Shown: positions 399 through 57,286 of the stretch, piece after piece
Numbering within the stretch: position 1 is the first letter of the stretch
Layout: each line of letters starts with the position of its first letter
Assembly: GCA_035288865.1 (NCBI GenBank)
Contig: DATDZA010000017.1
Span: forward strand, 12,672 to 76,671
Direction: 5' to 3'
Length of the DNA: 64,000 bases
Origin: Candidatus Nanoarchaeia archaeon
GTDB lineage: Archaea > Nanobdellota > Nanobdellia > Woesearchaeales > GW2011-AR4
Program-made: the position numbers and the translations under genes
Notes under the pieces: model-generated
The model's database searches: none
Told to the model about the DNA's origin: nothing
The model's input: the letters and a program-made list of their open reading frames with translations, nothing else

Positions 399-1463
399 TC
401 AATAACTCATCTTAAACCTTAAAATAGCCCCAATTCCCCCCAATCCGTCGAGCTTGTTTCCGCCTTCGTGCTCGGAGCTTATTATCTCAACATCTCCTTT
501 TGTCTTGTCAACCGTCTTCATAATATTTTCAACTCTTTTATAAAAATTCTCCAGTCGGGATTTTTGAATTAGTGAATCAGTAACCAATAAATCCCTGATT
601 GCGCCCATTGCAGCAGCATTCTCAACTTCTTTAAGCCCGTAAGCAAATAAATTATTTTTTGCAATTTCTGTAAATAATTCTTCAACCTTATTCATTTCCT
701 TTGCTGTTCTTTCCAGCTTCAAAGCTTCTCGGACTTCAGGGCGCTTGATTACTTCATCAATCCCATTTTTGGTTGCTGAGGAACAAGTCGCCAGAATTAT
801 TTTTTGCTTTAAATCATCACCTTTTAGCTCTTTCATCAAATCTTCTTTCCAAAATGAAGGGGATGCTAATATAACTTGTTTTATTTCATACCTTTCAACA
901 TATTCTTTCATTTTGTTTATCAAACTCAGATAAAAATTTTCTTTTTTAATATTCTCAGTTCTCTTTTTCTGCACTTCGCCTTCAATATGGGATAAAATTT
1001 CATATCCATATTTCTTAAACAAAGCAAAATAAGATTCTTCGCGGTCATGCACAACTATCAATATAGCAGATTTTGTTTCAGAACTGGCTTCTTTTAATTT
1101 ATCCAGTTGATACTTCAGCCATTCTTCTTTTATAATTGTAATTGTTGTATTTTCATCAACATTAAATGTGTGATGCTCCCCTCTTGGAACATCTTCAGGG
1201 GCTTCTTTTATAATTCCAGAAACGCGGAGAACATTGGAATGCTTACCGAATTCAACACTTTCAACTTCCAGCTTGACAAAAATAGACTTTTTTACGGCAT
1301 CTTTTGATTTTGCATCGCCGCTTGAAGACTTAATCTTCCTGAAAGTCTTGCCCTGAACGATATCTCCTGGATCAATCATATTACTCAAATACCACAAATC
1401 ATCCAGATTCTGCGTAAGCACTTTTACTTCACCTTTTTTAAGATTGGAATGCAGTAATTTCAT
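399..1463 (-). CDS. pelA: Pelota/Dom34 mRNA surveillance protein
   Basis: DDLWYLSNMIDPGD, RVSGII, G.HHT, C-terminal GLGGIGAILRF (eRF1-like domains). Start moved to MKLLH at 1463. Confidence 0.95.
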   Translation of the reverse strand: MKLLHSNLKKGEVKVLTQNLDDLWYLSNMIDPGDIVQGKTFRKIKSSSGDAKSKDAVKKSIFVKLEVESVEFGKHSNVLRVSGIIKEAPEDVPRGEHHTFNVDENTTITIIKEEWLKYQLDKLKEASSETKSAILIVVHDREESYFALFKKYGYEILSHIEGEVQKKRTENIKKENFYLSLINKMKEYVERYEIKQVILASPSFWKEDLMKELKGDDLKQKIILATCSSATKNGIDEVIKRPEVREALKLERTAKEMNKVEELFTEIAKNNLFAYGLKEVENAAAMGAIRDLLVTDSLIQKSRLENFYKRVENIMKTVDKTKGDVEIISSEHEGGNKLDGLGGIGAILRFKMSY

Positions 1464-1518
1464 TATGATAACTAAAATCAAAACCTTTAAATATGTTTAT
1501 GTTAAATTCTTTACTACA

Positions 1519-2691
1519 ATGTTGCAAAAGAGGGCTCAAGGTGGTGTGAATGCCGCTATTCTGGTGGCTATCATTGCAGGCCTGATTATTCTTTACATTA
1601 TTTTCCTCCCAACGTCGCAAAGAGAAGCACTTCTTCAGAATAAAACAGCCGAATCAGAATCAGGAGAAGATAATCCAAACGTGCTCTTGGATGTGTCTCC
1701 GGGCTCTTTAAGCAATAACCAGGGCCTTGAAAATCAGAAGAGTATTCCGGATGCATTTTTGGTTGAGACAACAAACGCGCAGGAGCTGAAAGCAGTAAAC
1801 CCGTTCATCGTAAGAAACGGATGGTTTGACACAAAAACATACAAAACTGATTTTGGCATTGACGATCCAGCAAACACAGACAATGTAATCTTGTCATTCA
1901 CAGCAAAAAAACACACAGGCGTTATCACAATAAAGCTCAACAGCGTAGTGATTTATGAAAATGAAATTGGAAACGAAAACATTGAGCCGGTTAAGCTCGA
2001 CAAAAGGACACTTTCCAAAACAAATACCCTTGAATTCAGCGTTTCATCTGTGGGGATAAGATTCTGGTCAACAAATGAATACAGTTTTGAGAATGTTAAA
2101 ATTATTGGAGACATTACTGACACTTCACGGCAGCAAAGCACGAATATTTTTACGATAACCGATTCAGAGTTTGCAAGCATGGATAAGGCAGCACTGAAGT
2201 TCGTTCCGTCCTGCGGAAGCGTCAGCAATGTTGGCATTCTGGATATTTTTGTAAACAACAAGAAATTATTTTCATCTGTCCCTAAGTGTGACGACTTGTA
2301 CAAGCAAAGCATCCCTAAAAGTGTTTTGAATGAAGGCGAGAACAACATTGTTTTCAAAACAAATAAAGGAAGCTACAGCGTCGAGCAAATCAAGATTTCG
2401 CTCGAATTCGGCCAGCCGACAGTGCGGACATATTATTTTGAAATCAATCAAGACGTCTTTGACAGAATTAGAAACGGCGACAGCGATCTCCAGTTAGCTG
2501 TCAAATTTGTTGATGATGGAAAGCAGAAAAGAGCCAGACTGGATGTTAATGGCCACATCGAAACTATTGATACTAGTAAATTAACTTTCACAGAAAAAAT
2601 TAATACTAAAATTTCAGAAGGAAACAATTACATTAGGTTAGACCCGATAGATGATGTTTCAATCGTTGAATTGAAGATTGAATTAGTTTAA
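1519..2691 (+). CDS. Secreted beta-rich protein with a class III (pilin-like) signal peptide
   Basis: MLQKRAQ followed by a hydrophobic helix GGVNAAILVAIIAGLIILYIIF, then repeated beta-sandwich-like segments. TATA (CCTTTAAATA) about 25 nt upstream of ATG 1519. Confidence 0.65.
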   Translation: MLQKRAQGGVNAAILVAIIAGLIILYIIFLPTSQREALLQNKTAESESGEDNPNVLLDVSPGSLSNNQGLENQKSIPDAFLVETTNAQELKAVNPFIVRNGWFDTKTYKTDFGIDDPANTDNVILSFTAKKHTGVITIKLNSVVIYENEIGNENIEPVKLDKRTLSKTNTLEFSVSSVGIRFWSTNEYSFENVKIIGDITDTSRQQSTNIFTITDSEFASMDKAALKFVPSCGSVSNVGILDIFVNNKKLFSSVPKCDDLYKQSIPKSVLNEGENNIVFKTNKGSYSVEQIKISLEFGQPTVRTYYFEINQDVFDRIRNGDSDLQLAVKFVDDGKQKRARLDVNGHIETIDTSKLTFTEKINTKISEGNNYIRLDPIDDVSIVELKIELV

Positions 2692-2867: not shown

Positions 2868-5800
2868 ATGGGGATATGGGACAGTTTTAAAAGAGGATTT
2901 AGAAAGGGAAAGGCAGGCAGTGCAAATAATGCTGCAGCAAATAATCAGCAAGCTGCATCCAATCAACAAAATGATAATTCTATGGATAACCAAAACTCAC
3001 AAAGAAGTGTACCCACTTACATTACCAACGTTATAAAAGGACCATCAAAAGGTTACCTATGGCTCATAATCCTACTTTTTGTTATTGTAATTGGAATACT
3101 TTGGTATAAGAGTGCGCTAAGGCCAGTATTAATCTGGCTGTTGACTTATGGTGGACTTATGGCACTTTGTGGATTTATTTTATGGGGACTTCTAGATGGA
3201 ATAAAAGAATCAGCTCAGGGAAAACCTGACGGATTGACAAAATTATTCATTTCTTTGGCTTTAGTAATCTGGCTCGTTGACATGATACCTCCTAATTTTC
3301 CGGTAATAGGTAGATGGCTTGGTCAGCCATATGCTGGGTTTGAAATTTCATCCAGTGGATTATTGAATATTTCTTTGGTTCCAGTAATAACCTCTTCATT
3401 TATGTTTATATGGTTGTACATAAACATGGTTAAAAACATAGTCAAGCACGAATATGTTAGTTTTGGGCTCGGTTTTATCTCAATACTTATTATAAACAAT
3501 TTTATAAAAAGATTTTTTCCCACATCCGCAAATTGGGGTTTTAGTATTTATCTTCCAACTTGGCAAGGCATTTGGGCCATACTATATTATGTTGGGATAG
3601 CAGCTTTATTTGTTGGTTTAATTATACTCGCAATCTATTTTGATAGGAAAAAAAGTCAGGAATTTCCAGGATTCTTTTCTTATTTCTTTATGATAACAGT
3701 TTTTTCATTTTTCTGGATAAATAATGGGTGGCAGCAAAATCCAAGAGCAGTATTGCACGCAATTTTTATCATAGCCTTTGGTTTTGGTTATATTAAAACA
3801 CACGAAGAAAATCCAGTTGTATGGCATATACTGATTCCCTTATTGTTGATAGTGGATTTCTATGGCTACGGGTTATTATGGAATTTGGGATATCTTTGGG
3901 CTAAATTTATTCCCATCTTTATTGTATTTGTAATCTCATATTGCTATCACAAAACAAACAGTGGTTTCGCAATATTAACATTTATAGTTCTTGTTACTGT
4001 GATACTTATCTTAAGTCTGGACGTAACAGCTTATGCCGAATCTGGAGCATTTGATTACAAAGCACAAAGCGGTGGTGCCGATTTCACACAATTTTTTGGT
4101 ACGCTGAGCAAAAACACAAAACTCCTCATTGAAAGGCAATTAGTATTCGCAACAGGCGGATTATATAGAAGCCAGGTCGAATTAAATCAATATGCGCCGC
4201 TTGGAGTCTTCTTTAAGAATATTCGGGCAGCGCAGCCGAAATTCTATGATGACGAGCCTGTTACAATTTGGGCTACGATTAGCGCTAGAACTTTAAGCGA
4301 GCCGGTGAATGTAAGTTTTAAGTGTTATAGGAAGAGCGGCAACGAACGGATAGAAGAATTACAGAATCAGGCCTCACAGTCTGGCAAATTTGAAGTATCA
4401 ACTTACGAGGAAAGGGACGTCGAATGTAATTTTCAGCAGAGTCCGAACCTTAAAAAATTTGAAGTCGGCTCAAGCAATAATATAATTTTATCCTTAACTT
4501 ACAATTTTGCAACAAGCGCTTACCAAAAAATGTATTTCATTGATAGAGACAGATTGCGGGCGCTGACACGTGAAAATATAGACCCTTTGAAGCAATATGG
4601 AATTACCGACTTAAGCAGTTCGTCTTCACTTGATGATACAAGTAGTGGGCCCGCGGCAGTCTATACAAACGGGCCTGTTGAAGTTGCTACGCAGGTGCAA
4701 AAACTTGTTCCAGTTGATAAAGAGCCAACCGCAGTAGCATCGGTTCTGCTTGGCATACTTCTTCAAAACAGAAACCAGATTTCAGATAAGAATGGCCAGC
4801 CAATAGGCGAATGGGAAGGAAAAATAAACAAGATAAATCAATTGGCTGTAATACTTCCCCCCGGGATTACTATTCCTCATTTTGATCCTTCAAATCCGAA
4901 TAGCGTTAAAAACTGTAATCCTATAAATTTTAAGGAGTATAGTAAGACTGATTGTATATCAGAGTGTATAAACCTTGATGTTGAAGGGAAGAAGAAATGC
5001 GAAAATGAATGCACTTCGCTTTTCAGAGATGACAGCAGCGGCCGTGACACCTACACCGGATATCAGCTTGACGTGAGTCAAATTAGAAATAATACTGAGG
5101 TTAGGGACATCGACCGCTACAAGACTTTCACATGCAGATTAACAGTTTCAAAAGATGTGCTTGATAATACACCAATCACAACAAAATTCATCAGGATAAG
5201 GGCTAAATATGATTATCTAATCGAAAAATCCTACGATGTTGTTGTTGAAAAAGCGCCGATACCTTATGATGAGTATGGCCCGTCAGAAACCGGGTATACT
5301 CCATTTGGGGATGAGGGTACAGACCAAAGAAACGAACCAGATGTTGCCGCGACAGATACGGAAATTGATGCTTACCTAACCTATAAGAAATCTCCCTTGC
5401 AGGGCATAGGCCAATGCATGGAAAATGCTAAAAATAGAACAAAAGTTCCAACAGCAGTCATGGTAAGTGTTGCGTTGCTTGAAAGCAAGAAACCAAAAAC
5501 AACCGGCTTTGGCACTCTGTCAGACCTCGCAACACAATCAAAGAATTTGTTTGGTGTGAAATGTACTCCCAATTGGATTACAAAAAAATGTCCAACTCCT
5601 AACGAGGGTGATAAATGCTGCAGGACGTACGATAAATCCGACCTTGACAAAAAATATGAGCCAAATGCCCCGAATAATTATAGAATTTATGTAAGTCGAT
5701 GTGCTTCGGTAAATGATTTTGCCGACATTATAAGTAAAGAAAGTAGATATAGAAGTGCTATGGGTTCTACAAATGATCCAGAGACCATGATAACAAAAAT

Positions 5801-5909
5801 AGGGGCGGCAGGATACGCAAGCGATACTGAATGGGCCACTAAAATTAAATTAATGTATAGAGATTTACAGAAATACTTGTCCACGCGTTCAATAACTGCA
5901 CAAACATAA
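2868..5909 (+). CDS. Polytopic membrane protein with an extracellular domain and a C-terminal GH73 (glucosaminidase/FlgJ-like) peptidoglycan-hydrolase domain
   Basis: About 10-11 hydrophobic segments in aa ~55-390. The C-terminal ~170 aa contain VALLES (catalytic Glu), SKNLFGVK, YRIY.S..SV.DF..II....RY and AGYASD.EW..KI, matching the GH73 motif order (ES...NLFGIK...Y.S...D...GYATD). Confidence 0.8.
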   Translation: MGIWDSFKRGFRKGKAGSANNAAANNQQAASNQQNDNSMDNQNSQRSVPTYITNVIKGPSKGYLWLIILLFVIVIGILWYKSALRPVLIWLLTYGGLMALCGFILWGLLDGIKESAQGKPDGLTKLFISLALVIWLVDMIPPNFPVIGRWLGQPYAGFEISSSGLLNISLVPVITSSFMFIWLYINMVKNIVKHEYVSFGLGFISILIINNFIKRFFPTSANWGFSIYLPTWQGIWAILYYVGIAALFVGLIILAIYFDRKKSQEFPGFFSYFFMITVFSFFWINNGWQQNPRAVLHAIFIIAFGFGYIKTHEENPVVWHILIPLLLIVDFYGYGLLWNLGYLWAKFIPIFIVFVISYCYHKTNSGFAILTFIVLVTVILILSLDVTAYAESGAFDYKAQSGGADFTQFFGTLSKNTKLLIERQLVFATGGLYRSQVELNQYAPLGVFFKNIRAAQPKFYDDEPVTIWATISARTLSEPVNVSFKCYRKSGNERIEELQNQASQSGKFEVSTYEERDVECNFQQSPNLKKFEVGSSNNIILSLTYNFATSAYQKMYFIDRDRLRALTRENIDPLKQYGITDLSSSSSLDDTSSGPAAVYTNGPVEVATQVQKLVPVDKEPTAVASVLLGILLQNRNQISDKNGQPIGEWEGKINKINQLAVILPPGITIPHFDPSNPNSVKNCNPINFKEYSKTDCISECINLDVEGKKKCENECTSLFRDDSSGRDTYTGYQLDVSQIRNNTEVRDIDRYKTFTCRLTVSKDVLDNTPITTKFIRIRAKYDYLIEKSYDVVVEKAPIPYDEYGPSETGYTPFGDEGTDQRNEPDVAATDTEIDAYLTYKKSPLQGIGQCMENAKNRTKVPTAVMVSVALLESKKPKTTGFGTLSDLATQSKNLFGVKCTPNWITKKCPTPNEGDKCCRTYDKSDLDKKYEPNAPNNYRIYVSRCASVNDFADIISKESRYRSAMGSTNDPETMITKIGAAGYASDTEWATKIKLMYRDLQKYLSTRSITAQT

Positions 5910-5913
5910 GACA

Positions 5914-6984
5914 ATGATAACCAAAAATATTATTTTATTTTTATTATTATCCATGTTTTTGATAGGATGCAATGCAGCAACCGGCAATAATAATAAAAAT
6001 CAGGCAGTAACTTTTACAGGAACCGATGGAATCACGGCAGAATTTGCAGCAAGTGCACCCGCAAAAACAGTTTTTGAAAATAGCTATTTTCCAATTTTAA
6101 TAAGAATAAGAAATATGGGTGCTTATTCAATTCCAAAAGATCCTGCAAATACGCAAGGCCTGATTACTATAGGCAGAGAAAAAGATTATGTGCCGATTCT
6201 TGAAATTGAAGAGAACAGCAGGCTTGCAAAAAACAGCGGCCCAGGTGACAATGAAATGACATTTTTTGTTGATGGCAAAAGCCAGATTAACCCAAATGGC
6301 GATGAATTGGTTGCATCCCTGAAGGCAAAAACAAGCAATCTTGACGCGCAAAGTGAACGGCGAATTTCAACTATTACTGCAAATTTATGTTATCCCTACA
6401 AGACAGCTCTGAGCACCACAGTTTGTATTGATCCAGACATAGAAGGCCTCCGCCCAGGAAAAAAAGTTTGTAAAGTTGCTGCCCAACCATTTGCAAATGG
6501 GCAGGGTGCGCCATTGGCGATAGTGAAAATTGAATCATCAATGCTTCCAGATGTAGACAATAATGTGATAAAGCCACAATTCATTATTTATGTTGAGAAT
6601 AGAGGACACGGAAATCCTGTAAATTTGGCAGGTTTCAGGAATGCCTGCAGAAATGATTTTGATATTAATGACCCAATCAATAATCGATGGAATGTCGCCA
6701 GTTTAAGGGCGTTTACAGCCGACGGCACAGGAAAAGTGCAGCTTATTTGCTGTCCAAATAAATTAGGTTATTGTCCCGATAATGACAAGGATCCAGTCAA
6801 TGTGGACAACTTTGCTGGATTTATAAGATTGAAAGACAATAAAGATTTTATCAGATGCACTTTCAAAAATGGCATACCAAAAACCTTTGACGCCTACACA
6901 TCACCTCTTCAAATAGAAATTGATTATGGTTATGTGCAAACCATTTCAACAAACTTTATTATCCAAAAGCCGCTTAAATACTAG
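5914..6984 (+). CDS. Lipoprotein, paralog 1 of a Cys-containing surface family
   Basis: Lipobox-like LIGC; motifs LCYPYKT..VCIDPD, GAPLAIVKI, IEIDYGY. Confidence 0.7.
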   Translation: MITKNIILFLLLSMFLIGCNAATGNNNKNQAVTFTGTDGITAEFAASAPAKTVFENSYFPILIRIRNMGAYSIPKDPANTQGLITIGREKDYVPILEIEENSRLAKNSGPGDNEMTFFVDGKSQINPNGDELVASLKAKTSNLDAQSERRISTITANLCYPYKTALSTTVCIDPDIEGLRPGKKVCKVAAQPFANGQGAPLAIVKIESSMLPDVDNNVIKPQFIIYVENRGHGNPVNLAGFRNACRNDFDINDPINNRWNVASLRAFTADGTGKVQLICCPNKLGYCPDNDKDPVNVDNFAGFIRLKDNKDFIRCTFKNGIPKTFDAYTSPLQIEIDYGYVQTISTNFIIQKPLKY

Positions 6985-7080
6985 AATTAACAAATTTTGA
7001 ATAAATAAAATGAAAAATATTTTTTAATTTTAAAGGACATTTCGACACCTTTAAATAAAGAAAATATAACTTAGATTAAA

Positions 7081-8178
7081 ATGAAAAAATCCAAAAATTT
7101 TATTATTATTGCATTTTTATTAATTTTTGTCTTCTCAATTTCTGCATGCAGCAATAAATCTTCCGACACCACATCAAAAGAAGAAGTAAGGGTAGGAACA
7201 CAGGGTATTATTGCAAATTTCCTGCCAAACAACCCCCCCGATAAATTACACGCGGAATCTGACAGTGCAAGAAACCAATTTGATGTCGTTTTGGAACTTA
7301 GAAACCAGGGGGCTTATCCTCAGCCTGAAGACTCAGCTGGCGGCTTGGGTGGCCCAAAGGGACGACTATATTTAAGCGGCTATGATCCTTATATTATTAC
7401 TTTGACACCAAAAGCACCCAAGAACGGGCAATCAGCCACAGGCGCGGATTTAAATCAGTTGGCTCTTGATGGAAAAAGCACAATCAATCCCAACGGCGGC
7501 CAGGATATTCTGGCATTTCAGGGCAGTATAGATTATTCTAAACTTAAAGTGGATAAATACGATGTCATTTTGCTTGCAACCGCATGCTACCAGTATCAAA
7601 CTGTGGTCGGCCCCACAGTGTGCATAGACCCCGACCCCTACACAACAGTAAACCAAAAGAAAGTATGCCAGGTTAAAGATACGGTACTTTCAAGCCAGGG
7701 CGCTCCAGTCGCTATTACTAGTATTATCGAAGAGGCCTTTGACCAAAAAACTCAGTTTAAAATAACAATAAAGAACGTCGGCGGTGGAGAAATCATCAAG
7801 AAAGAATCATTGGATAAATGCGACCCTTACGGAAAAAGTACGACTGCTGCAGGCTCGTCAAGTTCTGGCAAGATTGAGAGGGATGATTTGGACAAGGTGT
7901 ATGTCGATTTTGTGAAAATGGCAGATCGTGCAATAACATGCGGCCCATTCGCCGATGGCACCGTAAAAGGAACAAGTGGAAATTTGAGAATGATTAACGG
8001 CGAGGGATTCATAATATGCGAATTGCAGAAATCAAAAAGTGAATATTCTCAGACAAACACTGCTTACACAACCCCAATGGTGATTCACTTAACCTATGGT
8101 TATAGGACTTCCGTAATGCGTACAATGCAGATAATAAGAGAACCATCAAGCACGGGATCGCCAACTTCCAATCCTTAA
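7081..8178 (+). CDS. Lipoprotein, paralog 2
   Basis: ISAC lipobox; ACYQYQT..VCIDPD, GAPVAITSI, LTYGY. Confidence 0.7.
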   Translation: MKKSKNFIIIAFLLIFVFSISACSNKSSDTTSKEEVRVGTQGIIANFLPNNPPDKLHAESDSARNQFDVVLELRNQGAYPQPEDSAGGLGGPKGRLYLSGYDPYIITLTPKAPKNGQSATGADLNQLALDGKSTINPNGGQDILAFQGSIDYSKLKVDKYDVILLATACYQYQTVVGPTVCIDPDPYTTVNQKKVCQVKDTVLSSQGAPVAITSIIEEAFDQKTQFKITIKNVGGGEIIKKESLDKCDPYGKSTTAAGSSSSGKIERDDLDKVYVDFVKMADRAITCGPFADGTVKGTSGNLRMINGEGFIICELQKSKSEYSQTNTAYTTPMVIHLTYGYRTSVMRTMQIIREPSSTGSPTSNP

Positions 8179-8226
8179 ACAGAAAACTTTATATACCTAC
8201 ATCAAAATAAAATCAATTAAATTTAA

Positions 8227-8277
8227 AGAGAACTTTGAATAAATCATTAAGTTTATATATTTCGTTTAAAGTTCTCT
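8227..8277. repeat. REP-like hairpin element (long unit)
   Basis: AGAGAACTTTGAAT..TTTAAAGTTCTCT; its loop aligns with the reverse complement of the 2791-2842 unit (AATCATT.AAGTTT.TATATATTT). Confidence 0.75.
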
Positions 8278-8334
8278 AAGGTAGTTTTAACAAAATTGAT
8301 ATATTTTAAAATTACCAATTGAAAAGAGGCAAAA

Positions 8335-9351
8335 ATGAGTAAACAAAATTATATTCTTGCATTCTTGGTCATATTAGTTCTTTTTGTTTCATCATGCAGT
8401 GGAAAGAGCGGTGCATCAACCGGCAGCGCCCCAAGAACGCCTTTTATCGGCGGCACAGCCGGAATTACGATCAATTTTGAAAAGGACACGCCTCCTCCTG
8501 AAGTTACCGACGATGACACGTTTGGATTCAGGGCGATTATAGATTTGAAGAATGAAGGTGAGTACAGTGTTCCACGAGACGCAGTTAAGGTAAATCTTGT
8601 TGGATTTGATCCGGCAGACTTCGGAAAGTCATTTGATGATTTAAGGGATGTGCTTCCAGATGACAACCTTGATGCGAAGAGGAGAGATGCCGAGGGCAAT
8701 ATTTTAGAGGGCACGACAACTTATGCGCAATTCCCGAGAAGCGGCGATGATTTCATTCCAACGAAATTCCCCGGCAACACACCATTTACTTTTAGGGCAG
8801 ATGTATGCTATAATTACCAGACTCAGGCCGACGCCCAGCTTTGCATATTAAGGGATATGATTAACATCAGGCAGGATGCAATATGCATACCGACCCAAGG
8901 CAGAACAGTTTATAGTTCATCAGCACCAGTTCAGGTTGTAAATTTCAGGCAGAGTGTTATAGGGAAAGACAAGATATCATTTACATTTGATGTTGTATTA
9001 AGCGGCAATGTTGATGTCTTCTGGAGCAGGGAAAAGAGAAAGCCGGTAACTTTTGATGACGGCTGCCCGAGAAACCCAACTGCAAGAAGGGCAGTTGAAA
9101 ACAATGTCGGGGTTACCATAACTGAAATTCCTACGGATCCTTTGTTCTCTGAATTGAAATGCGGCGGCTTAGACGGCGGCTCAACAGGAGTTGTCAGGAT
9201 GATAAATGGTAGGAGATCAATTACATGCACAGCCTCGATTGTTCAGGACAGGCTTGACTTGGAGAAGACAGTCGGCATTTTGCTCGAGTATAATGTTCTC
9301 GACAACAAAGAAACTCAGGTTCTTATCAAGCACCTTGCAGAAGGGCCTTAA
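8335..9351 (+). CDS. Lipoprotein, paralog 3
   Basis: VSSC lipobox; VCYNYQT..LCI, SAPVQVV, LLEYNV. Confidence 0.7.
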   Translation: MSKQNYILAFLVILVLFVSSCSGKSGASTGSAPRTPFIGGTAGITINFEKDTPPPEVTDDDTFGFRAIIDLKNEGEYSVPRDAVKVNLVGFDPADFGKSFDDLRDVLPDDNLDAKRRDAEGNILEGTTTYAQFPRSGDDFIPTKFPGNTPFTFRADVCYNYQTQADAQLCILRDMINIRQDAICIPTQGRTVYSSSAPVQVVNFRQSVIGKDKISFTFDVVLSGNVDVFWSREKRKPVTFDDGCPRNPTARRAVENNVGVTITEIPTDPLFSELKCGGLDGGSTGVVRMINGRRSITCTASIVQDRLDLEKTVGILLEYNVLDNKETQVLIKHLAEGP

Positions 9352-29064: not shown

Positions 29065-30417
29065 TTACTTGGAGTCGTTCTTTACTTTTTTGCCTCTATT
29101 CATCATCCAAGCCTTTTTTGTTGTGTACTGCGCAGGATTTTTTATCTTGGCGCAGAAAGAGTCAGGACTGCAAACCCTTAAATCAGTGTAGTAATTTTGC
29201 TGATTAATCAGAACAACATTATTTTCTCGCCTGGGGCAATTGGGTGGCAAAATCTTTTTTCTTTGCTGCTTGTGATATCTAACCTGCCCAATCAAATAAA
29301 TTTCTTTCAAAGGCTCTCTGTTCTTGTCATTCCATTCTTTAAGTTTTTTCTCAATCATGTCATAATCCCAGCCTATGGAAGTAAAATAATTCACCAATAC
29401 AAACAAAGCCCTTTTTCTTCCGTCTTCAAGGCCATTGAGAATTGTCTTGATGCACGGCGGAAATAATTCTTCAGGCAAAGCAGATGCAGGCCCTTCAAAT
29501 TCTTTTCCGGATTTTGGCTCTGTTTCATCATCTTCCTTTGCATGAAAATCAAGCGCCTCAACAAATAATCTTTTTGCTTCTTCTCTTTCTGCATTTGTCC
29601 TGTCAAGAAATTTATGGGAACTTATTTTGACCTTATCAGGCAAGGCAAACTCTTTTTTGAACAGCATAACCTTTTCTGGATTTAATGGCACCGACACAAG
29701 CCCGGATTTTTCATGAAGAGAATAAGGCATCCTATAAAGATGTCGGGGAGATATCAGCAAAGTGTCCATTTGCAGAATTGAATCAGGATTAAATTTCTTC
29801 ACGCCTCTTTCTTCATACAGCACTTCACTTGCAATTTTTCCTGTTTTTTCAAGAACTTTTGAAATGTTGCCCTCAAGCTTCAAAATTGCATCTCCAAACT
29901 CAGGCAGTATCATGTGCTTGATGTAAAGCGCAATTTTTCTCGGTGCATCGGGAAACAGATTTTTTATGTCCCCATTTTTTATTCTCTCAGGAAACGCCTC
30001 ATAAGGCACCCCGATGTGGAATCCCTTGTTGCCGGAAAATTTGCAGGAAATGGATTTTATTTTATGGAATTTCAGCGCTTTAATAACCAAATCAGCGGCA
30101 ATTTTCGAATAGTCAAAAACTATACAATCAATATCAATTATTAAATCCCACCCAATCCTTAAATCCTCCAGTTCCTGCCGTCTCATGGTGGGGTCGAGCT
30201 GCAGCGGGTCTTTCCATAATTCTTCAGAAGCGTGAAAAGAAGTTGCGCCCTGCTTTGCCAATTCAAGAATGTCGCTTGCATGTCTCAGCACATCTGGCCT
30301 CTTGCCAAACTGCTCGTTAAAGCGCGCAGCAACTTCCCGGTCTGCAGAGTTTGTAATTATTTCTTCCTGTATGTCCGCTCTCTTATAATGGCTTAATGAT
30401 ACATTGATAGGAATCAT
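29065..30417 (-). CDS. priS: DNA primase, fused small + large subunit (PriS-PriL)
   Basis: WDLIIDID, KFSGNKGFHI, RHLYRMPYSLH (PriS), then FPPCI..GL.DGRKR..PPNC...C (PriL Fe-S C-terminal domain). Confidence 0.92.
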   Translation of the reverse strand: MIPINVSLSHYKRADIQEEIITNSADREVAARFNEQFGKRPDVLRHASDILELAKQGATSFHASEELWKDPLQLDPTMRRQELEDLRIGWDLIIDIDCIVFDYSKIAADLVIKALKFHKIKSISCKFSGNKGFHIGVPYEAFPERIKNGDIKNLFPDAPRKIALYIKHMILPEFGDAILKLEGNISKVLEKTGKIASEVLYEERGVKKFNPDSILQMDTLLISPRHLYRMPYSLHEKSGLVSVPLNPEKVMLFKKEFALPDKVKISSHKFLDRTNAEREEAKRLFVEALDFHAKEDDETEPKSGKEFEGPASALPEELFPPCIKTILNGLEDGRKRALFVLVNYFTSIGWDYDMIEKKLKEWNDKNREPLKEIYLIGQVRYHKQQRKKILPPNCPRRENNVVLINQQNYYTDLRVCSPDSFCAKIKNPAQYTTKKAWMMNRGKKVKNDSK

Positions 30418-52022: not shown

Positions 52023-53534
52023 TTAACTATTATGGTTAGAATTAATTATCTGTAGTCCAACAACTTCTCCAACACGTACAGGTACGGCGTTGCCAATATG
52101 AGCGCTAATTCTTGTCTGATTTCCTTCAAAAACATAGTTGTCAGGAAATGTTTGTAAGGCGGCAGCTTCTCTTAAAGATATGGCTCTATTTTGAATCGGA
52201 TGACCATATCTGCCATTACTTATACTATTACATTTACAGGTCAATGTAGGAGCAGGTTTATCCCATTTCATTCTTCCGTAAGTGTCTCCGTGTCCAGAGT
52301 GAGACTTGTGGCATTCAAGTATAAGCTCCTTTGGCCAGGATTCTCTGCCTCCACCATTTTTGGGCGTGTTTTTCAATCTCAACAAGTTGATTGGCATTAT
52401 ACTTCTGGCCGTATGATTGGGATATTTTGGATCATTGCCTCCAGCTTTAATAGATGGGTATTTGTAAATTGTATCCCTCACAGTTCTGAAAGGAATATTT
52501 TTCCCGTCATAAATCTTTCCCGGGAGTTTTATTTTTCCTTTTCTCGATGCTATTAACATAAATCTGGCTCTGCTTTGAGGAACGCCGTAATCCCTAGCAT
52601 TAATTATAGCGGGATCAAAATAGTATTGATTATCATTTAATATACCAATAAATCTGGAGTATGTTGAATTGCCACCCTTCTTGGTAAGCCCAGGAACATT
52701 TTCCACAAAAAGAAAATCTGGTTTACATTCGTCAACAATTCTTGCAAATTGGAAAAGAAGCGTGGCTCTTTTATCCGCATCTCCTTTGTTTTTATTTTGA
52801 GTCGAGAAAGGTTGACAAGGAGCGCAGGCGGCAAAAAGTAATTTTGATTTTTTCCTGTTTATTTTGAATCTTTTCAACAATTCTTGTCCCGAGATATTTG
52901 TGATATCTTCAGTCAGGAATTTTGCCCCAGGATTATTAAATTCATAAGTATTTTTGGCAGTCTCATCAATATCTATACCAGCCACTACATGTATGCCAGC
53001 GTTCAATAATCCTCTAGTAAGTCCTCCCGCTCCACAAAAAAAGTCTATTGCAACTATTTCTTTTTTTGGAATATCCTTAGATGATTTGATATTTTTTTTT
53101 ATTTTAAGGATGCAATCATCCAAATTATTTTCTATTTCTTGACCCCAAAATCTAAGAACTTTCCATCCTTGTAACCTCAGCTTAATATTTACCTCCTGAT
53201 CCCTTTTTATGTTTCCTTCTATTTTATTTATCCAGAAGGCTTTTCTTTTTTTGATTTGTTTTTTGTATTTTTTCCAATTATAGCCGTGCCAAAACTTGCT
53301 ATCGCAGAAAATAGCAACCTTTTCTTTTACTAAAACAAAATCTGGTTTTCCAGTTATGGGAAAATGTTTTTTGAATTTAATTCCAGCACCGAAAAGTGCT
53401 TTTTCGAATGTCTTTTCCATATCAGAACCGCGCGAAAATATGCGGGACATATTGAAGCTGATTTGTTCCTTGGTTCTACTTTTTCTTGTTGACATTTCTG
53501 ACCCATGATATTGATTAAAAATTTGTTGTATCAA
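52023..53534 (-). CDS. Fusion of Vsr (very-short-patch repair) endonuclease and DNA (cytosine-5) methyltransferase
   Basis: N-terminal MSRI..GKPD..AIFCDSKFWHG..FW..KI..N..RD..GWKVLRFW (Vsr). Then FFCGAGG (motif I), PCQPFS (IV), ENV (VI), QSRAR (VIII), R.ISLREAAALQTFP (IX), GNAV (X). Start is TTG 53534 or ATG 53495. Confidence 0.92.
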   Translation of the reverse strand: MIQQIFNQYHGSEMSTRKSRTKEQISFNMSRIFSRGSDMEKTFEKALFGAGIKFKKHFPITGKPDFVLVKEKVAIFCDSKFWHGYNWKKYKKQIKKRKAFWINKIEGNIKRDQEVNIKLRLQGWKVLRFWGQEIENNLDDCILKIKKNIKSSKDIPKKEIVAIDFFCGAGGLTRGLLNAGIHVVAGIDIDETAKNTYEFNNPGAKFLTEDITNISGQELLKRFKINRKKSKLLFAACAPCQPFSTQNKNKGDADKRATLLFQFARIVDECKPDFLFVENVPGLTKKGGNSTYSRFIGILNDNQYYFDPAIINARDYGVPQSRARFMLIASRKGKIKLPGKIYDGKNIPFRTVRDTIYKYPSIKAGGNDPKYPNHTARSIMPINLLRLKNTPKNGGGRESWPKELILECHKSHSGHGDTYGRMKWDKPAPTLTCKCNSISNGRYGHPIQNRAISLREAAALQTFPDNYVFEGNQTRISAHIGNAVPVRVGEVVGLQIINSNHNS

Positions 53535-53704: not shown

Positions 53705-53807
53705 GGATGTTATACATATATACTTATATAAATATTTAACTCATTTTATATATTAATTAATACATACTAGTTTATCAAATATATTTCACGACGACGAGGT
53801 GCCTAAA

Positions 53808-55301
53808 ATGATAGATTCAAAAGAAAATATAAGCTTATTTGGACAGAAGATAGGAAGAGTAGTGGCATTGGAAGATTCTCCTACGTTTGAAAAAGTCACT
53901 GTTAGGCTTGATGCTGGCCGACGAGTAAGACCTGGAGAATTACTAGTAGTTCCTTGTAATCTAGAAGGATCTCGCAAAGATTTCATAATCTTAAGAGTGT
54001 CTGGAGCCAGAGAATTCAACGAGTATGAAAATCCTATGGATAGTCAGGTCAGAGATATGTTTAATATGAACTCCGTAAGGGGCCGAGATGACCTTCTCAG
54101 AAAGTTTGTTCTTGCTGATACACAACCTTTGGAAATGGTATTGCAGGCAGAGGAAGAAAAACTCATAACTCAAGATCCCACTCAGCTTGTCCATTCTGGG
54201 ACAGAGGTATACAAATTAACCTCAGGTGTTGCTGGAAGCCTTCTTGGGTTTCCAGAGCCAGGAGGTCCATCTTCCATGGTGTTGGGTGATGTAGTGGGAG
54301 AATCTGGTATAAAGGTAGTTCTCGATGCTAACAAGTGTCTCCCCAGACATATGTTAATCGTAGGGTCAACTGGAACAGGAAAATCCTATTTCATTGGGGT
54401 CATTAGTGAAGAACTCCAAAGGCTAGGCATAAGGCACATTAACATCGATATCCATGGAGAAATGGTGAAAGCATCATCTGAGATGGGCGGTAGCAATGTC
54501 CTGCCTGGCAAAGAATTGACTGTAAAATTATCCTCGCTTTCGGAACCAGAAGTTATGGAAATGTTACCTATAACGAACGATCTCCACAAAGACATTGCAA
54601 TTAAAGCATTCTCGAATCTTAAAAAAACAGGAAAAGACTTTGGAATTCAGGAATATAAAGATGAAGCCAGATCAGTTGCTGTTTCCTATGGGTCTAAGCA
54701 AAATACAATGGATATCATGGATGCCAGGATTCAGACATTGGAAAGTATTTCTATCCTAGGCAAGGGTTACGATTGGATTACAGCTCTTGAAAAAGGAGGG
54801 GCTTTAGTAAATATAGATTGTAGGGAAATATCCAGCCATACAGAATTAAAAATAATTGTTGGTTCGGTGGCTAGAGAAGTAATGAATCTCAGAAAAAAGG
54901 AAAAAATTAAGGAATTAGTTTTATCTATGGACGAAGCTCATATGTTCTTGCCTGCAGGAGAAACGTCTCCGTCTTCCCATGTACTTGGAGAGTTAATAAG
55001 GTTTGGAAGACATCACGGAGTCGGAATTATTATTGCGTCGCAAAGTCCCAATGATATAGATAGAAGAATAGCAAAAATTACAAATACAAGGGCCTTTTTT
55101 GCTATAGAAAAAACAGAAATAGGATCGGTGACTGGATTACTGGCGGATACTCCAGAGGATATCATAGCTGCCTTACCCAGATTAAAAACTGGTACATGTT
55201 TATTAGTTGGTGCTAGAGATATTATTAAACATGCACAAATAGTGCAGGTAAGGAAAAGAACATCTACTCATGGCGGCGAAACCCCAAAGATGATAAAATG
55301 A
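53808..55301 (+). CDS. HerA-family (HAS-barrel + FtsK/HerA) ATPase
   Basis: N-terminal IGRVV..beta barrel, RHMLIVGSTGTGKS, MDEAH, GRHHGVGIIIASQSP.DID. GAGGTG RBS before ATG 53808. Confidence 0.9.
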   Translation: MIDSKENISLFGQKIGRVVALEDSPTFEKVTVRLDAGRRVRPGELLVVPCNLEGSRKDFIILRVSGAREFNEYENPMDSQVRDMFNMNSVRGRDDLLRKFVLADTQPLEMVLQAEEEKLITQDPTQLVHSGTEVYKLTSGVAGSLLGFPEPGGPSSMVLGDVVGESGIKVVLDANKCLPRHMLIVGSTGTGKSYFIGVISEELQRLGIRHINIDIHGEMVKASSEMGGSNVLPGKELTVKLSSLSEPEVMEMLPITNDLHKDIAIKAFSNLKKTGKDFGIQEYKDEARSVAVSYGSKQNTMDIMDARIQTLESISILGKGYDWITALEKGGALVNIDCREISSHTELKIIVGSVAREVMNLRKKEKIKELVLSMDEAHMFLPAGETSPSSHVLGELIRFGRHHGVGIIIASQSPNDIDRRIAKITNTRAFFAIEKTEIGSVTGLLADTPEDIIAALPRLKTGTCLLVGARDIIKHAQIVQVRKRTSTHGGETPKMIK

Positions 55302-57286
55302 AGGAAAAAATAAAACAGCTGCTGAAGGGAGCTACTGACGGCCTCACTTTATCCCAAATCAAAGGGTTATTAGGTGATGAGATTACATTACCAGTGCTTA
55401 GACAATCAATTACTGAAATGGAAAATGAGAAAACTGTTGCTTCATTTCCAGGCGAACCTGACAAAATAGGAAGACCTCAAAACTTGTATATGTTGATCGA
55501 AGGTGATAATATTGTCAACATACAGGACAAAGAATATGAGTATGGAGAAGAAAGGAAATTATTAATTGAACTTCTTAAAGATATAACCGATAAATATTCT
55601 ACACTGCCTCCTGAAAAACTGATGGAGATATATGGAGAAACTGCAATAAGGCTAACGAAAGAAAATCCCATTGACCTCTTTTTGAGGTATGCGGATTGGC
55701 TAAAAAAAACTCATGAAGAGGAAATCGCAAAACATGAAGCGGCAAGACTTGCAAATTCTAAAGACGATATGACTCTAAGATATGGATTTATCAATCAACT
55801 AGAGGCTTCTGCACTAGTGATGTTTAATCATCTCTTGGGAGTTCCATTTAGTTTACCTGATGGAAAAGACTGGAAAGCTGGACCATTCCGACTAAAATAC
55901 GATTTTAAAAATCATAAACTGAATTCTAATATGGATCGTAAGATGCTTGAAGAATATCTGAAGATGTCAGTATTTGGTGAATATGTGTTAGAAATACTAG
56001 AATGTGAGAAGCTTAACTTGCCAGCCGTAATAGGTGGCAGTGATGCATCATTACAGGCATTAGATCTTTCAAGAATTCTTCCTTGGAATGTTGAAAAACG
56101 AGAAATGCATTTAGTAACTGCCGTTGGTACTCGATATAACATTTTTGAATCAACAAAGTCAGACGTTGACTGGTATCCTGAGCCAAAAGTGCTCGCCGAG
56201 TATGAGAGGAAAAAAGCAATTTCTGAAGGATATTTAATCCCACCTGAAGAAGCTTTAGGTCAGGATAGCAATATGTATAATAGAATTAAAGAAGCTGCAA
56301 TGAGTTTAAGGCAATACCATAAGGATCATGAAATTATGTTTGAAAAGGAGCCTCTTGCAAAACTACATTTTAGAGACGGAAGAATATTCCCAGTTGAGCA
56401 CAGATTTTATGATTCGATTCAACCAGGCTTACATGGAGATATCGTAAGAATGGCATTAAACCAATTTAACAATATTGTTAATCAGATAGGTGTCAGTGAT
56501 GGCAGGATAAAATATTGTGGCTTTGTAAAAAGACCAGGTATTGCTTTCATAGCCCCAATAATAAGATGGTATATGGGGTTTGGTTCAGCAAATAATGGGA
56601 ATCCATCAATTGATCCCGGAATGGATATTGAAGAATATCTAAAATTTCCAAACTCGGATAGTTTCACAACCGCTTTCCTGTTTAAAGCACTAAGGGAGAA
56701 AACTAAAACAACTGGATGTATTGTTACTTTTAGAACTTTAAGAAGGTTTCAGTATTTGCAGGAGCCATTTATCATAAATCAGCCTCCAACGAATGACCCG
56801 TCTACTTGGCGCAAATCATTTATGGATAAATACTCCGATGTCAATCCATATATAGATGAAACTGGTTTAGATACTTATGCTAATTTATTGGCCAGAGCTG
56901 CTGTTATATCCTTTTACACCAGCCTTGATTCAAAATATGATCCCAGATACGAACCTTCAACCGTAATTCCAAGAGTTGAAATGATGGTACCTTTCATGGA
57001 TATAGGCAGTTTTCCATCACCTGGTGGTATTATTACTAAAGAACGTAAATATGTATGCGACCTTTTAAGCGTCATGTTCCATGAAGGTGTCTTGGACAAA
57101 TATAATGAACAATTATTCTTTATGAAAAAAGATAATCCAGCAATTTTTCTAGTTCCCAAAACAGTCAGAGATGCACATTTGGCTTCCAAGATGATTGCTA
57201 AAGTCTTTAAGGACGACTTCCTTAATTTACTGGTAAGGGAAGCCAGAATATTTTGGTTGGAGAAAAAATATAAGAAAGCTCATTAG
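55298..57286 (+). CDS. NurA-like (RNase H-fold) nuclease with an N-terminal winged helix
   Basis: wHTH-like aa 1-70 (LTLSQI..LRQSI..L..GRP..Y); GGSDAS, FRDGRIFP, GFVKRP, P..V..AH.ASK match NurA motif order. ATGA overlap with the herA stop. Confidence 0.72.
   Translation: MKEKIKQLLKGATDGLTLSQIKGLLGDEITLPVLRQSITEMENEKTVASFPGEPDKIGRPQNLYMLIEGDNIVNIQDKEYEYGEERKLLIELLKDITDKYSTLPPEKLMEIYGETAIRLTKENPIDLFLRYADWLKKTHEEEIAKHEAARLANSKDDMTLRYGFINQLEASALVMFNHLLGVPFSLPDGKDWKAGPFRLKYDFKNHKLNSNMDRKMLEEYLKMSVFGEYVLEILECEKLNLPAVIGGSDASLQALDLSRILPWNVEKREMHLVTAVGTRYNIFESTKSDVDWYPEPKVLAEYERKKAISEGYLIPPEEALGQDSNMYNRIKEAAMSLRQYHKDHEIMFEKEPLAKLHFRDGRIFPVEHRFYDSIQPGLHGDIVRMALNQFNNIVNQIGVSDGRIKYCGFVKRPGIAFIAPIIRWYMGFGSANNGNPSIDPGMDIEEYLKFPNSDSFTTAFLFKALREKTKTTGCIVTFRTLRRFQYLQEPFIINQPPTNDPSTWRKSFMDKYSDVNPYIDETGLDTYANLLARAAVISFYTSLDSKYDPRYEPSTVIPRVEMMVPFMDIGSFPSPGGIITKERKYVCDLLSVMFHEGVLDKYNEQLFFMKKDNPAIFLVPKTVRDAHLASKMIAKVFKDDFLNLLVREARIFWLEKKYKKAH

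Follow-up and report, generated by a model that had tools for sequence, protein, structure and literature searches.

A GH73-tipped membrane protein within a conserved five-gene surface cluster of Woesearchaeales, a candidate contact-dependent peptidoglycan hydrolase

Introduction

Large peptidoglycan-lytic surface proteins are known in Woesearchaeota and Pacearchaeota (PMC8204110, PMC9723730), and 'large murein-like lytic transglycosylase proteins' of Woesearchaeota have already been reported (Castelle 2015/2021, Vigneron 2022). The reported lytic proteins have been interpreted as tools to bind or degrade bacterial walls (PMC8204110, PMC9723730, PMC10936187). Experiments with Haloarchaea have further established that secreted archaeal peptidoglycan hydrolases (PGHs) kill bacteria (2025, PLoS Biol), and many PGH homologues have been noted in Nanoarchaeota (PMC12352652). 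This work concerns gene B (2868..5909 including the stop codon, + strand), whose 1013-residue product is a polytopic membrane protein that carries a GH73 domain at its C-terminus. The gene lies in a 64,000-nucleotide stretch of a Candidatus Nanoarchaeia archaeon of the Woesearchaeales (assembly GCA_035288865.1, contig DATDZA010000017.1), hereafter called the window, where it forms part of a cluster of five surface-protein genes, A-E.

The Woesearchaeota transglycosylase proteins and gene B belong to the same lineage and share the same proposed role against the walls of host or prey bacteria. The catalytic domain differs, since gene B carries a GH73 hydrolase (PF01832), whereas the reported proteins carry a GH23/SLT lytic transglycosylase. 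SLT-bearing relatives of gene B have its whole 800-residue scaffold in common with it (35-45% identity, E = 0), and their genes are found at the same place in the chromosome. These SLT-bearing orthologues are very probably the large transglycosylase proteins of the literature. A GH73 domain stands in gene B where the described SLT (GH23) domain would stand, which makes gene B a catalytic-domain variant of a Woesearchaeales family of peptidoglycan-lytic proteins built on a membrane scaffold. The 11-helix transmembrane (TM) anchor, the five-gene module, and the exchange of catalytic cassettes presented below are not described in PMC8204110, PMC9723730, or PMC10936187.

Woldo (M23) and Danwoldo (PF01832 plus PG_binding_1) are likewise archaeal and employ bacterial-type PGH domains extracellularly against bacteria, with Danwoldo sharing the Pfam family of gene B (PMC12352652). 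Both are soluble, Tat-secreted proteins with wall-binding domains, a patchy distribution, and genes that are often plasmid-borne (PMC12352652). Gene B, in contrast, is tethered to the membrane, shows no wall-binding domain of a known type, and sits in a syntenic chromosomal module that is vertically inherited. Because the survey in PMC12352652 required a wall-binding domain, the gene B family falls outside its count.

Identity of the catalytic domain

The GH73 domain (5361..5882, +; residues 832-1005, with nucleotide 5361 opening codon 832) occupies the final ~180 residues of gene B, whose product is identical to database cluster P0001. An earlier reading of the bare DNA (the sequence-only reading) had proposed a GH73/FlgJ-like peptidoglycan-hydrolase domain at 5361-5880, and profile and fold comparisons bear this out. 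In a hidden Markov model search, Pfam PF01832 matches gene B at 61.9 bits, well above the gathering score of 30.2 (E 1.3e-16), covering profile positions 4-122 of 123. FlgJ structures are matched at E 4e-5 by gene B itself (phmmer) and at E 1e-12 by a profile built from the seven nearest GH73-type relatives. Foldseek pairs the AlphaFold model with the GH73 structure 4qdn at a probability of 1.00 and a TM-score of 0.80 (normalised to the target), which identifies a lysozyme-like, alpha-helical fold with a beta-hairpin lobe. The model also resembles phage glucosaminidase models.

The characteristic motifs ALLES, NLFGVK, and GYASD begin at nucleotides 5472, 5544, and 5811. Within the first lies the codon of Glu872 (5481..5483, +), the predicted general-acid catalyst, and within the last that of Tyr983 (5814..5816, +); all of these stand where the sequence-only reading had placed them. 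Its quoted 'S..S' spacing, on the other hand, was one residue off, the actual string being Y-RI-Y-V-S-RCA-S-VN-DF. In alignments, Glu872 pairs with the catalytic Glu of FlgJ (marked by PDB 3k3t, which differs from 2zyc in having Ala there), and Tyr983 falls on the FlgJ GYATD motif. Of 17 GH73-type relatives, 16 keep the catalytic Glu, all 17 the GYASD Tyr, and 16-17 the six Cys of the domain. Retention of these residues indicates purifying selection on what is probably an active, oxidised, and hence extracytoplasmic enzyme. The Cys-rich insertions suggested earlier hold in part: six conserved Cys are present, but relative to FlgJ they come as substitutions plus ~12 extra residues in the hairpin region, and no large insertion is seen.

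One GH73-type relative, P0003, has Asp (..AMHDS..) in place of the catalytic Glu and also lacks the conserved YEP Glu. Judged from these replacements, the P0003 enzyme may be inactive or altered.

The FlgJ GH73 domains (Salmonella 5dn4/5dn5; Sphingomonas 2zyc/3vwo/3k3t) constitute the best sequence match of solved structure, with the same Glu position and the Tyr of GYA(T/S)D. FlgJ further resembles gene B as a locally acting, machine-associated wall cutter. Unlike FlgJ, gene B is archaeal and membrane-tethered, has no rod-binding N-terminal domain, carries six conserved Cys, and does not conserve the hairpin Glu at the aligned position. The best fold match, 4qdn, is the GH73 glucosaminidase TM0633 of Thermotoga maritima. 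This protein is 18% identical to gene B and represents a minimal soluble bacterial enzyme with neither anchor nor ectodomain. By every computable measure except the variable second carboxylate, gene B is a member of GH73.

Two narrower identities were rejected. The NCBIfam model of FlgJ, TIGR02541, reaches 43 bits against a cutoff of 193, with the enzyme part alone aligning and no rod-binding Pfam domain present. GsmA (NF038016) reaches 69 bits against a cutoff of 240, with the alignment confined to the GH73 part. Regarding the origin of the domain, a homologue search with the GH73 region alone returned nothing, apparently through a word-index limit for short queries, and thus traced no bacterial donor. 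A tblastn search of phages found remote lysins only (25-30% identity), which gives no evidence for a recent phage origin.

Architecture and membrane topology

AlphaFold was run on the full-length protein with 31 homologues and on residues 50-445 with 20 homologues, and the same 11 membrane helices appear in both runs. The N-terminal tail (2868..3047, +; residues 1-60) contains 8 K/R and is predicted to be cytoplasmic and disordered, with a predicted local distance difference test (pLDDT) score <50. Its low-complexity, N/Q-rich sequence, NNAAANNQQAASNQQNDNSMDNQNSQ, varies in length and composition among relatives. The 11-helix TM domain follows (3048..4016, +; residues 61-383), as delimited by AlphaFold helices, invariant columns, and the positive-inside count. 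Next comes a juxtamembrane segment with the highly conserved motif ATGGLYR..VE.NQY.PLGV (4017..4202, +; residues 384-445). Its helix covers residues 406-428, helix plus near-invariant motif span residues 406-447, and the invariant columns are A428, G431, E438, N440, L445, G446, and V447.

The ectodomain (4203..5258, +; residues 446-797) is assigned as an immunoglobulin-like (Ig-like) beta-sandwich region from the secondary structure of the model, weak Foldseek matches, and invariant Cys. It is predicted to form two Ig-like sandwiches with a disulfide-stapled CxxxC...CxxxC helical hairpin (C696/C700/C711/C715). The weak fold matches are to integrin (legs), Cna adhesin, arrestin, and pilus-chaperone beta-sandwiches. 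A flexible linker (5259..5360, +; residues 798-831, with pLDDT <50 for 799-829) then connects the scaffold to the GH73 domain, and an identity breakpoint marks it as the junction at which C-terminal domains are exchanged.

The description of gene B as a polytopic archaeal membrane protein, given in the sequence-only reading, agrees with the 11 helices of both models and with the archaeal gene content of the window (Pelota, RFC small subunit, FEN1, PAN, a fused PriS-PriL primase, and Hef). The charge distribution orients the protein. Loops predicted to lie inside carry 10.2 K+R on average and the longer outside loops 4.9, a pattern found in 29 of 31 family members, and relatives lacking TM1-2 begin at helix 3 after an Arg-rich tail, which leaves the orientation unchanged. 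The two models and the positive-inside pattern place the C-terminal 630 residues outside the cell, which fits a Cys count of 14 in the ectodomain versus 2 in the TM region. The GH73 domain is thus predicted to be extracellular, as had been proposed.

Near the predicted outer face of the TM domain lie the invariant polar residues D138, N285, W288, H297, and D330. Pfam recognises no family in the TM region of any of the 31 members, and a PDB search with a model of the TM domain alone yields nothing of related fold (best E 0.28, TM-score 0.1-0.2).

A stable scaffold with an exchangeable catalytic tip

An initial search yielded 30 full-length homologues from metagenome-assembled genomes (MAGs) of Woesearchaeota/Nanoarchaeota, with E = 0 and 33-46% identity over 66-98% of the query. 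The homologues share the first ~800 residues and differ at their C-termini, where Pfam recognises GH73, SLT, phage tail lysozyme, SLT plus amidase_2, or nothing. A Pfam scan of 31 members assigned 14 SLT, 7 GH73, 2 Phage_lysozyme2, and 1 Amidase_2 domains, and most of the tips that Pfam leaves unrecognised carry an SLT-type GxMQ motif. An exhaustive profile search extended the family to 501 representatives (50%-identity clusters) at E<=1e-30. When the count is confined to the 144 distinct proteins whose scaffold is complete and whose tail reaches 120 residues or more, 96 tips are SLT-like, 15 are GH73, and 33 are of other types. The last group includes fn3-only, crystallin-like repeat, Cys-rich, and unknown tails, and most tails that are neither SLT nor GH73 have no Pfam family. 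Specifically, distant members such as P0201, P0214, P0221, and P0251 carry beta/gamma-crystallin-like repeats (TLYDDKNYGG...), fn3-only tails, or Cys-rich modules. Effectors or binders of other kinds may thus also be displayed on this scaffold.

Closeness of the scaffolds does not predict the type of tip: the nearest ectodomain relative carries SLT in the case of 11 of the 15 GH73 members. The clearest comparison involves the GH73 protein P0011 and the protein of locus L025, which ends in SLT plus an fn3-like tail. The two are 76% identical over residues 1-800, and similarity drops to background right after the last scaffold strand. P0011 is just 68% identical to another GH73 protein, P0007. 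The point at which P0011 and the L025 protein part has its counterpart in the disordered linker of gene B. A neighbour-joining tree served as a rough guide, and the case for exchange rests on the pairwise identities and the breakpoint alignment. On this sequence evidence, the catalytic tip is a replaceable cassette on a stable scaffold and appears to have been exchanged repeatedly.

By analogy only, this arrangement recalls polymorphic toxins (CdiA, Rhs) and modular phage lysins, in which a conserved scaffold is followed, after a defined junction, by an exchangeable C-terminal effector. No sequence relationship exists, the recognised domains that are exchanged are wall-lytic and not diverse toxins, and no immunity genes are apparent.

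The five-gene surface cluster

In the window, genes A-B-C-D-E are all on the + strand, between Pelota (-) and the RFC small subunit (-). Gene A (1519..2691, +) encodes a 390-residue bitopic surface protein and lies directly upstream of B in all loci. The mechanically called open reading frame (ORF; 1444..2691, +) starts at TTG 1444; orthologues favour the ATG at 1519, which is likely the true start. Translated from there, the protein opens with the near-invariant N-terminus M..K[KR][AGS]QGG.NAA.LVAIIAGLIILYI.FLP, that is, K/R-A/G-Q-G-G followed by a hydrophobic stretch. This signal-anchor, KRAQGGVNAAILVAIIAGLIILYIIFLP, is extremely conserved and resembles either a class III (prepilin-type) signal or a TM segment packed onto a partner. 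No other part of the cluster is as conserved as gene A, which shows ~65% identity over at least 583 90%-identity clusters, all annotated as hypothetical. It belongs to no Pfam family, and its profile finds no PDB match.

Downstream of B are three paralogous lipoprotein genes in tandem. Gene C (5914..6984, +; 356 residues, lipobox LIGC) starts 4 nt past the stop codon of B, and in other loci B and C overlap. Gene D (7081..8178, +; 365 residues, lipobox ISAC) is a paralogue of C (BLASTP E 2e-26), and gene E (8335..9351, +; 338 residues, lipobox VSSC) is a paralogue of both (BLASTP of D against E, E 1e-17). Both D and E are syntenic across loci. Pfam holds no relative of C, D, or E, and their profiles find none in the PDB. 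The three proteins (5914..9351, +) have 7-9 conserved Cys. The number and order of these lipoproteins are constant across Woesearchaeales, which makes them suitable candidates for work on how DPANN archaea produce lipoproteins. A relationship between the B ectodomain and C/D/E, suggested by YxYxT...C-ID-D motifs seen by eye, found no support in profile-profile comparison (hhalign E 0.064 across 49 columns); nor did gene A match either of the two.

The same gene order occurs in six loci picked by protein identity. More broadly, A-E lie between Pelota and RFC in every sufficiently long locus, corresponding to ~30 of 35 species-level genomes, all of them Woesearchaeota/Nanoarchaeota MAGs. On this comparison of loci, A-E form a conserved surface module that is chromosomal and, by its synteny, vertically inherited. 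The five proteins probably cooperate.

Two features of individual loci deserve mention. The records of L012, L014, L016-L018, L020, L028, L029, L031, L034-L037, L039, and L040 are labelled 'uncultured Methanosarcinales archaeon', yet carry this locus, which is specific to Woesearchaeales, with Woesearchaeales-like Pelota/RFC neighbours, and the label looks wrong or like a placeholder. A DDE transposase (DDE_Tnp_1) and a small DUF2080 gene stand beside the cluster in L005 (3673..4590, between Pelota and gene A) and L006 (970..1380).

Substrate, mechanism, and competing explanations

The product of gene B, which comes from an uncultured groundwater archaeon of the DPANN group, is probably a cell-surface peptidoglycan glycosidase that cuts bacterial walls lying close enough to the archaeal cell, and so serves attachment, access, or feeding. 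The 11-helix domain would hold the protein in the archaeal membrane with its N-terminus inside, while the conserved helix, the two Ig-like domains, and the ~30-residue flexible linker would present the disulfide-stabilised GH73 domain outward, with Glu872 as the likely acid catalyst. The archaeon presumably makes no murein itself, and no gene for murein or pseudomurein synthesis was seen in the window or in the flanks of 41 loci, a limited sampling. In such a cell, the tethered enzyme would cut the GlcNAc/MurNAc (N-acetylglucosamine/N-acetylmuramic acid) backbone of a bacterial wall. The sacculus of a bacterial host or prey would thereby be thinned or opened at the contact point, and B would work inside a module with the bitopic protein A and the three lipoproteins. 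Since the enzyme is confined to the membrane of its producer, an insoluble sacculus would be reachable only when cells touch, and contact-dependent action is the probable consequence of tethering. Repeated exchange of the tip would be expected if bacterial walls, or wall modifications, vary among targets.

The nature of the substrate is best approached through the alternative tips. MurNAc is absent from pseudomurein, chitin, and protein N-glycans, and both lytic transglycosylases and MurNAc-L-Ala amidases need it. Every recognisable alternative tip is murein-specific; the common substrate should therefore contain MurNAc, which points to bacterial peptidoglycan as the probable target. The proposal of a peptidoglycan target in the sequence-only reading thus gains strength from the SLT, phage tail lysozyme, and SLT plus amidase_2 tips of same-locus orthologues, and its alternative of a pseudomurein-bearing host is disfavoured by the same domains. 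This reasoning also bears on the idea of an autolysin directed at the archaeon's own murein-like or pseudomurein wall, or of an enzyme for a non-murein substrate such as chitin, S-layer N-glycans, or the pseudomurein of a host archaeon. The Pfam name does record endo-beta-N-acetylglucosaminidase activity, in principle not limited to murein, and the cluster is core and vertically inherited in a housekeeping-like manner, unlike the patchy, plasmid-biased archaeal PGHs (PMC12352652). Nevertheless, interchangeable tips that need MurNAc, the missing synthesis genes in the loci sampled, and the restriction of pseudomurein to Methanobacteria and Methanopyri (PMC12352652) make such a role very improbable.

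Nutrient scavenging is a more serious competitor, although still an unlikely one. A tethered enzyme could digest free peptidoglycan fragments or dead walls for amino sugars and peptides, with no living host and no breach involved. DPANN genomes are metabolically reduced, and dead-cell peptidoglycan has been proposed as a resource in Pacearchaeota papers (PMC11537232). The window encodes peptidases M16, M24, and M29 a few kb downstream, and tethering would retain the products near the cell. Yet an enzyme fixed to the membrane by a short linker touches insoluble sacculi only by contact, whereas secreted soluble enzymes are the usual solution, and the cluster contains no amino-sugar transporter or catabolic gene. 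Repeated cassette exchange also looks more like diversification against living targets than like bulk digestion. A further possibility, which is a special case of the contact-dependent glycosidase favoured here and which we consider quite improbable in this specific form, is that the GH73 domain opens a local gap in the host sacculus for an envelope-spanning structure that A and C-E would build, for example a pilus-like fibre or a feeding bridge. Bacterial FlgJ, VirB1, EtgA, and TagX open local gaps of this kind, and the closest solved relatives of the domain, those of FlgJ, have exactly that role. The constant linkage to four surface proteins and the prepilin-like hydrophobic N-terminus of gene A, strongly conserved after K/R-A/G-Q, are in keeping with it. 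On the other side, genes for a pilus ATPase, a prepilin peptidase, or a secretion system are absent from the cluster, Pfam finds neither a pilin nor a class-III signal in gene A, and the profiles of A and C/D/E match nothing in the PDB.

Several observations weigh against a surface glycosidase acting on bacterial walls. Around a quarter of the tails of distant family members contain no recognisable peptidoglycan hydrolase. FlgJ-type GH73 enzymes have a second carboxylate, and the position aligned with it is not conserved, being Asp in gene B and S/K/Q in relatives. The candidates for this function are limited to the hairpin D of ..LD and the E of YEP, both kept in the 12 of 12 sequences that align there, in a hairpin modelled at low confidence (pLDDT <50 for residues 922-931). 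The full-length model is moderate overall, with a pLDDT of 68 and a predicted TM-score (pTM) of 0.40. The absence of murein synthesis is presumed on a view of 64 kb of this genome, no RNA-seq run holding the locus was found, and to our knowledge no Woesearchaeales archaeon has a known host. Finally, the 11-TM domain is far more elaborate than anchoring requires and has no known relative, which leaves its function partly unexplained.

A bolder extension of the contact-dependent glycosidase can be put forward only tentatively, and on balance we are inclined to doubt it. A-E might form a dedicated, vertically inherited wall-breaching apparatus in a large Woesearchaeales clade of obligate partners or predators of bacteria, that is, in cross-domain episymbiosis. 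The tip would have diversified in an arms race, and the 11-helix domain, a previously unseen fold with conserved polar residues at its outer face, would be more than an anchor and could act as a conduit or enzyme that takes in or processes material freed by the breach.

Other features of the window

The sequence is present in groundwater and soil metagenomes. Away from the cluster, a single 450-residue ORF (29065..30417, -) matches both the small and the large subunits of archaeal DNA primase, a PriS-PriL fusion. Another ORF (52023..53534, -) joins a Vsr very-short-patch repair endonuclease domain to a C-5 cytosine DNA methylase, two functions that are usually encoded by adjacent but distinct genes. 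At 53799..57286 (+), a HerA-type ATPase of 500 residues overlaps by 4 nt a 662-residue protein with no Pfam match, and the two may form a HerA-partnered nuclease or defence pair. ARAGORN found no tRNA gene across the 64-kb window.

Concluding remarks

The idea of wall-directed lytic proteins has already been published for the SLT-bearing relatives of gene B, so that the gain here lies in detail and testability and not in a new principle. To this idea the present analysis adds the GH73 tip, an 11-TM anchor with no known relatives, the five-gene module, and a documented exchange of cassettes. The system also offers experimental handles, namely a domain of 180 residues, a module of five proteins, and a marker locus for candidate hosts. 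The disulfide-stabilised enzymes of the family may be of interest as lysins.

Woesearchaeales account for much of the archaeal diversity found in groundwater and sediments. In dozens of their species, what would be a murein-directed surface enzyme is held at one chromosomal site while its catalytic part has repeatedly been replaced. As such, the scaffold family provides some of the more direct genomic evidence for a physical interaction of these archaea with bacteria rather than with other archaea.

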